The notes under the pieces: generated by a model
Database searches by the model: none
Told to the model about the DNA's origin: nothing
The model's input: only the letters and a program-made list of their open reading frames with translations
Part shown: positions 33,700 to 36,560 of the stretch, one piece after another
Layout: every line of letters starts with the position of its first letter
How positions within the stretch are numbered: the first letter of the stretch is position 1
Made by a program: the position numbers and the translations under genes
NCBI GenBank assembly: GCA_050123235.1
Contig: JASFHL010000003.1
Coordinates: forward strand, 50,077 to 114,076
DNA from: Candidatus Woesebacteria bacterium
GTDB lineage: Bacteria; Patescibacteriota; Microgenomatia; UBA1400; PJMF01
DNA: 64,000 nucleotides
Reading direction: 5' to 3'

Positions 33700-36560
33700 T
33701 TAGGGTTATCTCTCTCCTGCTCTACGCAAGGCTGGGTTTCTCTGTAATCTGTGGATTATTTCACAGAAAACAGGGACTCCACCCGGCTGTAGGTAAAATT
33801 TGAGGATGGCCTGAAAGTCAATGCTGATGACCCTAGTGGTTAAAAGCAAAGGCTGAGGGCAGAACTCAAGTTTTGCTGAAAAATCTAGCGAGCGGCTTGG
33901 CACAAAGCTTCGGCTACGTGCTGGCTGGGCTTAGCTAGATAAACTTGCAAAAAGCAGATAGTTTCTGAAGAAACTGATTCCCGACTGAAACAAAAAGCGA
34001 ACTGCCTATCAAAAAAGATAGGGCAGGCAAAGCGAGCACACTGGCGAGGAAAGTCCGACCGTAGGTTGGGACGAAACTTGGCAGTCACTGTTCGTGGGGA
34101 AGCGCGCTTTGGGGTGTAGAAGTCTTATGCCCCGTGTGGAAGTTTGGGAGGAGGTTTCTAGGAAGCTGTCCTCATCCGCCGGCTCAGGGTTGTGGAGACC
34201 TGAGCGTTCACACCAAAGCTGGGCTTTGGCCTAGTGGAGGGATCCCAAGGAGGTGGTTTTTTGGGAGGAAGAAGCAAAGAGGAAAAGCTGGAAAACCGGA
34301 TTCAATCAGATAAAAAAAACGAGGTAAATTTACGATGAAGAATTACTTTATTCCAGGGATTTTGGTCCTGTTGCTGGCGGGCGTTTTGTTCGCTGCCAGC
34401 CAGGGTAACGAAGGGCTGGCGCAGGCCTCCGAAACAGCGCCTGAGGGGAACGCGAGTGCGGCAGTGGCGGCGGCCGACGATATCAATATGTTGTATGTCT
34501 GCCAAACGCCCCACTGTACCTACAATACAATCCAGGCGGCCGTGGACGCCGCGGCGCCCGGCCAGGAGATCTTGGTGGCTAGGGGCAATTACCTGGAGTT
34601 GACCGCGCGGCCCGTGGAAAACTGGGGTGTGACGGCCACGGTGACCTCCACGCTACACCTGACGAAGGTGGTGAAAATTTATGGTGGCTGGAACAGCGAC
34701 TTTACGGAGCGCGACCCAGAGGCCTACGTCACCCAACTTGCCCCGCCCGAGGGCAACGGTCGCTGCGCCTTTATTGCGGCCGATGCCGTCATCGACGGCG
34801 TCAAGTGCAGTGGGGGCCACGCTAGCGACAACAATGGCCCCCCCGGGATCCAGGGCAACGGCGGCGGCATCCTGGTGTGGGGCGCAAGCCCCACGCTGCG
34901 CGACATCAACATAGAGATGCCCAGCGCCGATTACGGTGGGGGCATCTACCTCTACGCCAGCGAGGCGAGACTGGAAAACCTGAATATCCGCGGCGGCATC
35001 GCAACATACCAGGGAGGCGGGCTGTACCTCGCCTACAGCAGCCCGCGGGTAGATGGCTTGGTGCTGATCGGTAACACCGCCCCGGAAGGCGGTGGTGCGT
35101 ACCTATACCACAGCAGCGGCAGCACGTTCGACAGCCTCATCGCCCAGAGCAACATGGGCGAGTGGGGCGGGGGCCTGTACCTGAACACCAGCAACGATGT
35201 CGCCATTGAGGACTGCACCGTCGAGAACAACACCGCCAGTGGCGAAGGCGGGGGGATGTATGTGAGCAACAGCCGGCGGTTGGCCATGGATCGCTGCGTC
35301 ATCAAGCGCAACCTGTCCTACAACAACGGCGGCGGCATGTACATCACCAGCGACTCCAACGCAGAACTGATCAACGTAGCCGGCCTGGCCAACAGCGCAG
35401 GCTGGGGGTCGTACTTATACGTTATCAGCAGCACGAGCATGTTGCTGCACAACAACGTCATCAGCAATAGTGGGAGCGCCGTATGGGTAACCGGCGAGGG
35501 TATCGCCCTGTTGGGCAACGCCATCATCGCCAACAACGAGGTCGGCGTCTACGTCGACAACGGTGTAGCGGCTATCGAACACGGCGTGTGGTTCAGTAAC
35601 ACTATGGACCACCAGGGCGCACAACTCGAACCCGGCGGCAACTGGTTCGAAGACCCTGGCTTGTCGGCCGATGGGATCCACCTGACCGGGGTCATGACGC
35701 CCGCGATCGACACGGGCAAGGACTATGTCGTCAACGACGACATCGACGGCGAGATCCGCCCTACTGGCAGCGCGCCAGACATCGGGGTAGACGAGTACGG
35801 CGGTGAGCTGCCGTGCGCAGCGATCACCGTTGCCAAAATCATCTCGGGGCCGACCGAGCCGGTCATCTCCGGCACGCTCTTCAGCGTGACCGGGGTCTTC
35901 ACGCAAAGCGGCCCCAGTCGCCCTGTCACCATCACCTGGACGCCGATGGAATTCGTCGTAGGCGGGCAAGGCACGCTGCAGGCCTGGTTCAAAATCGACG
36001 TGGTCTATAATGACCACCCGGTCATCCTGCAGGTGGCAAACAACTGCGGGGACGCCGGGTCCGATGAATGGCTGGTGGAGGTCATCGAGGAGCCCGAACC
36101 CCCGGTCTGCACGCCCGTGACGGAAGTGGAGCTGAAAACGCCTACGCTCATCTTCACTGGCACCACGTACTACCTGCAAGCCAGCGCACAACCCTTCAGC
36201 GCCACTGGGGATTTCACTTTTACGTGGTCCACCCCTGGCAACACATACGGCGAGACGGCCGTTCACAGCATGGGGAGCTTTATGATCAGCGACTTGGAAG
36301 TGCGGTATGACACGCCCGGGCCCAAGTCCGTCAGCGTGATGGTAGAGGGTGGCTGCGAGGAGCAAGACGTATGGCCCGTCAGCTTTGCCACCATCAATGT
36401 CGCGGCTGAGAGGCATGAGCTGAACCTGCCGTTTGTCTTGAAAAACTACAGCGGCTGCCAGGGCACTCTCTGCCTCGAAAAGTAGGATCATCTGTACCGT
36501 AGTAGTGCTTGAACTCTAGACTTTGGGCCCGGCGCGCTTTTGCGCGACGGGCCCATTTTC
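33700..36560. other. high-GC segment 1 (strongly GC-skewed codon usage) inside AT-rich genome
   Basis: abrupt compositional shift visible in sequence; contains one gene with own SD and GC-rich terminator. Confidence 0.7.
34335..36485 (+). CDS. secreted right-handed parallel beta-helix repeat protein (Pmp/pectate-lyase-like GGG[ILMA]Y repeats)
   Basis: signal peptide; repeated GGGIYL/GGGLYL/GGGAYL/GGGMYV/GGGMYI and N-containing turn motifs; GAGG SD; antisense/alt-frame ORFs here are GC artefacts. Confidence 0.7.
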   Translation: MKNYFIPGILVLLLAGVLFAASQGNEGLAQASETAPEGNASAAVAAADDINMLYVCQTPHCTYNTIQAAVDAAAPGQEILVARGNYLELTARPVENWGVTATVTSTLHLTKVVKIYGGWNSDFTERDPEAYVTQLAPPEGNGRCAFIAADAVIDGVKCSGGHASDNNGPPGIQGNGGGILVWGASPTLRDINIEMPSADYGGGIYLYASEARLENLNIRGGIATYQGGGLYLAYSSPRVDGLVLIGNTAPEGGGAYLYHSSGSTFDSLIAQSNMGEWGGGLYLNTSNDVAIEDCTVENNTASGEGGGMYVSNSRRLAMDRCVIKRNLSYNNGGGMYITSDSNAELINVAGLANSAGWGSYLYVISSTSMLLHNNVISNSGSAVWVTGEGIALLGNAIIANNEVGVYVDNGVAAIEHGVWFSNTMDHQGAQLEPGGNWFEDPGLSADGIHLTGVMTPAIDTGKDYVVNDDIDGEIRPTGSAPDIGVDEYGGELPCAAITVAKIISGPTEPVISGTLFSVTGVFTQSGPSRPVTITWTPMEFVVGGQGTLQAWFKIDVVYNDHPVILQVANNCGDAGSDEWLVEVIEEPEPPVCTPVTEVELKTPTLIFTGTTYYLQASAQPFSATGDFTFTWSTPGNTYGETAVHSMGSFMISDLEVRYDTPGPKSVSVMVEGGCEEQDVWPVSFATINVAAERHELNLPFVLKNYSGCQGTLCLEK

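Follow-up and report, generated by a model that had tools for sequence, protein, structure and literature searches.

Horizontal gene transfer and genomic islands have been documented in Patescibacteria, and most of the gene transfers detected there run between Patescibacteria (PMC12455944). Here we analyze a gene for a beta-helix protein that stands out by its composition in a 64,000-nt stretch of DNA from a Candidatus Woesebacteria bacterium (assembly GCA_050123235.1, contig JASFHL010000003.1, positions 50,077–114,076); this whole stretch is called the window below. The best explanation for the gene and its setting, and one that we consider likely to be right as a whole, is that a single foreign gene was acquired horizontally. 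As such the case is another, fairly ordinary horizontal transfer into Patescibacteria, a phenomenon already documented.

The segment resembles the genomic islets and islands described for Patescibacteria (PMC12455944) in that it deviates in composition, lies in a streamlined genome of the candidate phyla radiation (CPR), carries an accessory function and is absent from the syntenic site of relatives. It differs from them in being a single gene of ~2.2 kb without an integrase, tRNA attachment site or direct repeats, in its guanine-cytosine (GC) content of 62% vs 34%, in having no detectable donor, and in being accompanied by a second single-gene islet with the same signature in the same locus. 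Integron gene cassettes likewise consist of a single open reading frame (ORF) with a hairpin element downstream of a resident promoter. Here, however, the element at the 3′ end is a common intrinsic terminator that has a T-tract and lacks a GTTRRRY core, and neither attC core sites, the integron integrase IntI nor attI was found. As for the protein, chlamydial Pmp proteins and pectate-lyase-type enzymes share with it the right-handed beta-helix fold and glycine-rich repeat turns. It differs from the former in that a Pfam search at E ≤ 0.01 gave no match to Chlam_PMP (PF02415) or to an autotransporter barrel, and from the latter in that no pectate-lyase Pfam family matched and its structural neighbors are scattered over many families.

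Composition, edges and continuity of the segment

The features of the segment are the following, in coordinates of the window:

33730–34334, plus strand: structured leader, non-coding, 605 nt, 49% GC
34321–34324, plus strand: Shine-Dalgarno sequence GAGG, 10 nt before the ATG, in an AT-rich patch, as read from the sequence
34335–36485, plus strand: beta-helix ORF, 716 aa, GC 0.616, GC at third codon positions (GC3) 0.81; predicted secreted right-handed parallel beta-helix protein of foreign composition
34335–34400, plus strand: signal peptide, approximately aa 1–22 (MKNYFIPGILVLLLAGVLFAAS), with the N-terminus MKNYFIPGILVLLLAGVLFAASQG; Sec-type by sequence inspection
34482–35804, plus strand: beta-helix domain, aa 50–490, with regular short strands in the AlphaFold2 (AF2) model and a predicted local distance difference test score (pLDDT) >90 over about aa 60–480
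35808–36482, plus strand: C-terminal 225 aa, no assignable fold or family, AF2 pLDDT <45
36525–36568 (stem 36525–36554), plus strand: intrinsic terminator with a 13-bp GC stem (GGGCCCGG.CGCGC / GCGCG.CGGGCCC), a UUUU loop and a T-rich tail

The mean GC content of the window is 34.4%, and strong departures from it are confined to two stretches, 33.7–36.56 kb and 44.4–46.0 kb, both of which sit in a cell-envelope glycosylation locus. NCBI assigns the proteins of both islands to a Candidatus Woesebacteria metagenome-assembled genome. The beta-helix ORF fills most of the first one. Its GC at the three codon positions is 0.57/0.47/0.81, with GC3 evenly between 0.70 and 0.95 along the gene; GC3 in the 23 host ORFs of the window is 0.19–0.38. 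The GC content of the ORF lies +10.1 SD from that of equal-length host windows. Its relative synonymous codon usage (RSCU) correlates with the pooled host at r = −0.45, the corresponding values for host genes being +0.74 to +0.95, and its tetranucleotide usage is likewise foreign. The observed/expected CpG ratio is 1.02 in the gene and 0.48 in the host, and the fraction of glycine, alanine, arginine and proline (GARP) in the protein is 0.29 (host, 0.12–0.23). The segment thus shows the deviant GC, codon usage and oligonucleotide signature of a genomic island. The codon and tetranucleotide analysis called for in an initial annotation of this DNA therefore found a gene that is compositionally alien at every level, which is best explained by a high-GC source, as that annotation had proposed. 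Its statement that nearly all third positions are G or C was right in direction but too strong, the actual figure being 81%. That the 716-aa ORF is a genuine gene is shown by its Pfam matches and the way GC is distributed over the codon positions, and also by the beta-helix that AF2 models with confidence and by the Foldseek matches. A 358-aa antisense ORF lying over it (GC1 0.80) was rejected as a shadow ORF of the high GC3.

The segment had also been described as sharp-edged, which applies to one side of it. In 100-nt windows the GC content is 0.55–0.71 through the gene up to position 36499 and 0.30 by 36600. The terminator, which marks this sharp 3′ edge, was found as initially annotated, with stem, UUUU loop and T-tail all present. 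Its stem consists of 8+5 bp with one G.A mismatch and its T-rich tail reads AUUUUCAUUUUUCUU; a GC stem-loop and U-tract thus follow the stop codon as in Rho-independent terminators, and the 101-nt context folds at z = −3.8. On the 5′ side the rise comes in two steps, from 0.27 (33600–33699) to 0.45–0.57 (33700–34299), with 0.40 at the ribosome-binding site (RBS) and start codon, where the annotated GAGG is indeed present.

The intermediate step is the leader. It has a minimum free energy of −237 kcal/mol vs −186 ± 7 for shuffled sequences (z −7.3). In 200-nt windows the z-scores are −2.7 to −4.9 for the plus strand and −0.4 to −1.9 for the minus strand, and this strand-specific folding speaks for an RNA structure that includes G-U pairs and is formed by the sense strand of the gene. 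The leader gives no coding signal, its small ORFs do not exceed 67 aa and are without Pfam match, and against Rfam 15 no family reached its gathering score, with only noise at E ≤ 10. The dinucleotide signature is host-like, also in the cross-validated test (D = −0.06 with one donor model and −0.17 with the other), and the CpG ratio is 0.61 (host 0.48, beta-helix gene 1.02, second island 0.96). Unlike the leader, the non-coding flanks of the second island are donor-like. As its signature is that of the host, the leader is probably a resident structured RNA or 5′ untranslated region (UTR) whose GC content is held up by structure; drawn from 605 nt, this assignment is not decisive. The foreign DNA would then probably begin near the RBS and start codon at ~34.30–34.40 kb, so that the foreign segment spans ~34.33–36.56 kb and does not begin at 33700. 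The long structured leader of the initial annotation is thus real, with ~600 nt, strong structure and 49% GC, but by its host signature it probably does not belong to the foreign segment.

Two other identities of the leader were considered and rejected. The sequence GAGGAAAGUCCG at 34046–34057 is suggestive of RNase P RNA, but Rfam gave no match and reading the leader showed no S-domain signatures. Nor did remnants of pseudogenes find support: none of the small ORFs matches Pfam, and tblastn with the proteins of the corresponding positions in a related contig (L007, see below) gave no match to the non-coding DNA of the window. As a side observation, the RNase-P-like motifs GAGGAAAGUCCG and ACAGAA...CCCGGCU (33762–33795) occur in the wrong order, and we judge them to be coincidental.

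An extreme switch of composition in a metagenome-assembled genome (MAG) could also arise by chimeric assembly, i.e., by misjoining high-GC reads of another organism into the Woesebacteria contig, as the initial annotation had offered as its alternative. Two Logan contigs of run SRR11698124 speak to this. One (L001) is identical (100%) to window 33509–39810 and encodes the exact beta-helix protein; the other (L003) is identical (100%) to window 39783–49200. Together they cross all four AT/GC junctions of both islands, unbranched, and their ends fall inside repeat copies as expected of a de Bruijn assembler. With host DNA on both sides of two islands, a chimera would need four false joins repeated by two assemblers. 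Moreover, the host genes on either side are syntenic with a relative and the host-signature leader continues directly into the ORF. Since a second assembler reproduces every junction, a chimera is very unlikely, and we regard its probability as close to negligible.

The beta-helix protein and its relatives

The protein belongs to the beta-helix family by sequence, with matches to Pfam PF13229 (Beta_helix; 69.4 bits, E 3.6e-19, cut-off 25.9) and PF05048 (NosD; 40.2 bits, E 3.2e-10, cut-off 23.6). Eight GGGxY[LVI]-type coils occur in aa 176–361 with a period of 25–27 aa. Together with the ORF, the Sec signal recognized by inspection and the AF2 model, they bear out the initial description of a 716-aa signal-peptide protein with such repeats. 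The AF2 model shows a helix of low pLDDT at aa 6–23. A weak choice-of-anchor-Q-like segment closes the beta-helix domain at aa 456–488, where the match to NCBIfam NF041518 scored 20.9 bits, below the cut-off of 25.

The AF2 model and Foldseek agree on a three-dimensional beta-helix. Against the PDB, Foldseek returned GH136 lacto-N-biosidase, rhombotarget A, PL6 lyases, alginate epimerases, tailspikes and the PfbA adhesin with probability 1.0. These neighbors are all generic beta-helix proteins from many enzyme and adhesin families (TM-score 0.2–0.36). The similarity to PL6 and RbmB is at the level of the fold only (TM 0.2–0.3), and a PDB sequence search found nothing at E ≤ 1. The initial characterization as a Pmp/pectate-lyase-like adhesin accordingly stands as a resemblance of fold and not as membership in the Chlam_PMP, pectate-lyase or autotransporter families. 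CPR recipients are reported as monoderm-like. The C-terminal 225 aa have no Pfam match at E < 0.1 and no significant internal repeat, and a suspicion of two PKD-like repeats in this region was dropped after the repeat and Pfam searches. The region contains the motif NLPFVLKNY at aa 697–705 (nt 36423–36449), with 11 residues still following it.

Homologue searches covered ~15 billion proteins and returned 767 beta-helix homologues, of which the best apart from the protein itself has 32–33% identity and none more than 33%. The search for a donor lineage suggested by the initial annotation therefore ended without a close homologue. Compared with the query, "right-handed parallel beta-helix repeat-containing" and "choice-of-anchor Q" proteins from Chloroflexota and other bacteria (P0011, P0009, P0025, P0069, P0114) have the signal peptide, the N-terminal cap CxYxxIQAAVD, the GGGxY coils, the GADE-type helix end and a C-terminal [YF]LP[LIV]..[KR]-like tail in common, with 30–33% identity over aa 43–488. 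The query differs in an extra C-terminal region of 210 aa without homologue, in the internal position of its tail, in scoring below the anchor-Q cut-off and in being encoded by a CPR genome.

Of the 120 best homologues, 35 have a [YF]LP[LIV]..[KR] tail that ends 0–4 residues from the C-terminal end. All five of the best matches with a single high-scoring segment pair carry it, as do 11 of the top 20 vs 24 of the 99 others. The tail motif is absent from every other ORF of the window and of the two related CPR contigs L002 and L007, and we found no relevant literature on a C-terminal YLPLVLR-type tail or on run SRR11698124. Where tail-bearing relatives are named, they are Anaerolineaceae or Thermoflexales. 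Two relatives that were retrieved lie on contigs of 57–59% GC with a gene content unlike that of CPR (amylases, GH97, ABC transporters) and with ~46% GC in the upstream intergenic region. Since the tail is typical of the closest relatives, and these are Chloroflexota where named, a Chloroflexota-like donor is favored but unproven; at ~30% identity it is a lead only.

These relatives also bear on another possible source, a CPR donor of the same lineage but with high GC content, with the islands being alleles or cassettes exchanged among Patescibacteria that share the envelope locus. The only CPR entry among the organism-named homologues is the query itself, and the nearest relatives have the tail that was seen in Chloroflexota and lie on contigs that are not CPR-like; both observations argue against such a donor. 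The second island, described below, brings evidence in its favor.

The envelope locus and the second island

The glycosylation locus encodes a methyltransferase, RmlD, a 1280-aa membrane protein, glycosyltransferases of families GT2 and GT4 and a PMT_2-like protein, flanked by FtsE/FtsX/M23. The further features needed here are:

32924–32961, plus strand: host-type promoter CCTATAATATTGACT-N17-TATAAT, scan 11/12, no ORF directly downstream
33356–33729 (core 33453–33602), no strand assigned: palindrome resembling a miniature inverted-repeat transposable element (MITE), with 19-nt terminal inverted repeats (TTACTAAAGATAAATATTG) and the inverted repeats I3, I4 and I5, adjoining the leader on its 5′ side
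36615 and 36663–37604, plus strand: rmlD promoter (TTGACA-17-TATAAT, 12/12) and near-leaderless rmlD, the conserved gene that defines the slot
44400–46005 (ORF 44576–45715), minus strand: second island with the gene of a 379-aa lipoprotein-like protein, GC 0.625, GC3 0.72

A related CPR contig (L006/L007, 46% GC; L007 below) is syntenic with the window. It carries, in order, FtsE/FtsX/M23 (46–64% identity), GT2, P0135, a 94-aa gene (27–31%), GT2 (60%), a 1244-aa protein (40%) and rmlD (61%). The position immediately upstream of rmlD is taken by the beta-helix gene in the window and by the gene of an unrelated 300-aa secreted protein in L007; in the more distant L002 it is empty. By this comparison of gene order, the beta-helix gene occupies a variable slot, because L007 holds a different secreted-protein gene at the same position of the locus. 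Like a genomic island, it is therefore absent from the syntenic site of relatives and patchily distributed, although these relatives are distant, with 33–61% amino-acid identity in the neighboring genes. A scan of genome contigs for a closer relative or an empty site yielded only a 33% relative. Metagenome scans for the 1280-aa protein and for the MITE core found nothing, and exact-protein look-ups of the neighboring genes led to the same sample only.

Two observations on rmlD itself may be added. Its ATG lies ~10 nt past the −10 box, suggesting a leaderless mRNA. It is convergent with the gene of the 1280-aa membrane protein, and the overlap of their 3′ ends is a conserved arrangement, with 90 nt in the window (37515–37604) and 153 nt in L007 (14582–14734).

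The ORF of the second island has a GC-rich upstream region of 290 nt, an AAGGAGG Shine-Dalgarno sequence and 3′ hairpins. Its product has a lipobox-like LVASGC, an Ala/Thr/Pro-rich linker and a GARP-rich amino-acid usage; the AF2 model gave no confident structure (pLDDT 32). RSCU and tetranucleotide usage correlate between the islands at r = 0.67 and r = 0.79, respectively. In the cross-validated, GC-normalized dinucleotide test, D was +0.11 to +0.13 for beta-helix pieces tested against the second island and +0.02 to +0.08 in the reverse direction, with −0.07 ± 0.04 for host pieces. The two islands have the same GC-independent dinucleotide signature and therefore probably come from one donor or from donors of one type.

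In a full HMMER scan of the ~15 billion proteins, the family of the second-island protein had two members, the other being P0135 (34–37% identity; 37% over aa 136–376), and a profile search found no further ones. P0135 is encoded at the syntenic position of L007, at native GC (0.51 vs 0.46 for the genome). The family is thus at home in the CPR lineage, yet the copy in the window has 62.5% GC, and this is the main unexplained point. A conservation of the flanks of the second island with L007 was considered and rejected, as the upstream similarity was at chance level and the terminator similarity was equaled by 94 of 1000 shuffles.

It is because of this homologue at a syntenic CPR site and at native GC that a high-GC CPR relative has to be kept among the possible donors. 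The family of two, with P0135 between the same neighbors in a contig of 46% GC, the GC-independent signature common to both islands, and the report that most single-gene transfers detected in Patescibacteria are from Patescibacteria to Patescibacteria (PMC12455944) are all in line with it. However, the three available members of the lineage have 34–46% GC, none being near 62%, and the flanks are host-like up to the edges, without signs of homologous-recombination tracts. Taking this together with the homologues above, we consider a CPR donor unlikely, but because of the second island a serious rival to a Chloroflexota-like one.

None of the mobility hallmarks of a genomic island (integrase or transposase, tRNA attachment, direct repeats) was found. 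Integrases, transposases and reverse transcriptases are lacking within 15 kb, as are tyrosine recombinases in the whole window, and at the islands we found no attC-like GTTRRRY core, no template/variable repeat (TR/VR) pair and no flanking direct repeats. Capture by an integron, a diversity-generating retroelement or a transposon was rejected for want of attC, TR/VR repeats, reverse transcriptase, integrase and transposase nearby. Phage and viral contigs showed no similarity and plasmids a single match of 25%, so that an origin as a phage tailspike or from a plasmid was rejected as well.

The orphan promoter at 32924 (plus) lies 1.4 kb 5′ of the start codon of the beta-helix gene and can be aligned to the promoter of rmlD both here and in L007. 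It is possibly the promoter of a ~1.37-kb 5′ leader and the beta-helix gene, as judged from sequence. The motif CCTATAAYATTGAC occurs four times in the window vs 0.63 times expected by chance. Promoters of the type ATCCTATAAYATTGACA-N17-TGATATAAT are found at rmlD (36615–36652, plus) and GT2 (42343–42306, minus) and as the orphans 32924 (plus) and 46445–46408 (minus), the last one 0.73 kb 5′ of the ATG of the second island. Elsewhere the motif is present in L007 (15577–15533, minus, at rmlD) and in L002 (7204, 8616 and 16587). The idea that it is specific to the slots was therefore abandoned: it is clade-wide, occurring in three related CPR genomes.

The arrangement of promoters and islands could be read as pointing to transcript-sized cassettes, inserted by a cassette or retro-transfer mechanism into slots equipped with promoters, or to a local rise of GC content in situ. 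Each island comprises one gene and no more, closed by a terminator of its own, contains no fragments of donor neighbors and lies downstream of an ORF-less host-type promoter (32924, plus; 46445, minus), and the position of the second-island gene is conserved. The hallmarks of such mechanisms (integron integrase, attC-like GTTRRRY core, reverse transcriptase, TR/VR repeat) are nevertheless missing, the promoter motif is general to the clade and not slot-specific, and two cases are too few against coincidence. A local rise in GC is opposed by the amino acids, which are also shifted to those with GC-rich codons and thus point to long residence in a high-GC genome. We give these explanations very little credence.

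Several neighboring elements were noted in passing. AT-rich hairpins directly follow the orphan promoters (32962–33110, plus, z −8.1; 46255–46403, minus, z −6.2) and have no sequence similarity to each other; in a sliding fold scan, 46200–46399 (minus) reached z −10.7. Two non-coding stretches are long for a compact CPR genome, 32545–34334 (1.8 kb) and 45716–47082 (1.4 kb), each 5′ of a GC-rich gene. The MITE-like repeat beside the leader (~150 nt) is complete and has further copies at 46898–47047 (minus, 88% identity) and 49107–49302 (minus, 77%). Each copy lies within longer, copy-specific palindromic flanks, and the Logan contigs break inside two of the copies; no further copy turned up when metagenome contigs were scanned for the exact pattern.

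A tRNA-like gene of 70–72 nt at 32473–32544 (minus) points away from the island at a distance of 1.8 kb. ARAGORN calls it a tRNA-Leu(AAG), but it is without the long variable arm, and in Rfam the tRNA-like domain of tmRNA aligns with it best (22.9 bits, E 6e-7). Reading the sequence shows an anticodon stem of 7 bp and the pair G3:U70, the identity element for alanine. The gene may encode an unusual tRNA or be a pseudo-tRNA. Finally, 4115–18035 is a probable integrated element with slightly raised GC (0.39–0.42 at 4–8 kb). It encodes a type I restriction-modification system (HsdR 4876–7956, HsdS 10401–11612, HsdM 12363–13991), an AAA_13 ATPase, a PD-(D/E)XK nuclease, a helix-turn-helix (HTH) protein and a large serine recombinase (16473–17996), the 3′ end of which overlaps tRNA-Asn (17961–18035, minus).

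Origin of the gene and its implications

In the scenario of horizontal acquisition that we favor, the ORF and its own GC-rich terminator (~34.33–36.56 kb) would have come from a genome of ~60–65% GC and been inserted at a variable position directly 5′ of the conserved rmlD, within the envelope glycosylation locus. Integration by illegitimate or uptake-based recombination is probable, since nothing mobile is adjacent. Expression would make use of resident elements, namely the host-signature leader, the GAGG RBS and possibly the promoter at 32924. The product would be a Sec-exported beta-helix protein of a carbohydrate-binding or carbohydrate-active kind, followed by 225 aa with the LPFVLK tail. 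The second island, 8 kb away and of the same dinucleotide signature, would have come from the same or a similar donor. With GC3 uniformly at 0.70–0.95 there is no visible amelioration, which implies that the transfer was evolutionarily recent or that the donor composition has been kept by selection. Searches for the donor and for a close relative of the recipient found neither. The very recent acquisition and the host of an episymbiont as source, which the initial annotation had put forward, are accordingly inferences.

Some of our findings sit less well with this scenario. The other member of the second-island family, at a syntenic CPR site and native GC, fits a CPR donor better than one from Chloroflexota. 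The Chloroflexota assignment itself depends on three named sequences of ~30% identity and on a tail motif that is short, and the tail is internal in the query, with its 11 extra residues, while that of the homologues ends 0–4 residues from the terminus. Neither direct repeats nor att sites are present at the edges of the segment, and both assemblies were probably made from the same reads, so that artefacts at the level of the reads are possible. In the absence of a donor or close homologue among the ~15 billion proteins, direction, donor and date are inferred from composition alone.

A more far-reaching version, which we think rather improbable, would have two dedicated slots in the envelope locus, one 5′ of rmlD and one 5′ of the 94-aa gene, each always with a secreted-protein gene. 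Here both would have been refilled from a single partner of high GC content, plausibly the Chloroflexota-like physical host of the episymbiont, with transcript-sized units of one gene each, expressed via resident promoters and structured leaders. Were it true, the foreign surface genes would point directly, at the genomic level, to the host of Woesebacteria and to an unrecognized route of gene capture.

For the curation of MAGs the case is a warning: automated filters would flag this segment as contamination, yet an independent assembly reproduces it. For the biology of these bacteria, the comparison reveals positions within a conserved CPR envelope locus that vary and are occupied by secreted proteins. 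To our knowledge, the hosts of most CPR bacteria are unknown; if the beta-helix gene is derived from a host, such an unameliorated surface protein would give a testable lead to the identity of the CPR host.

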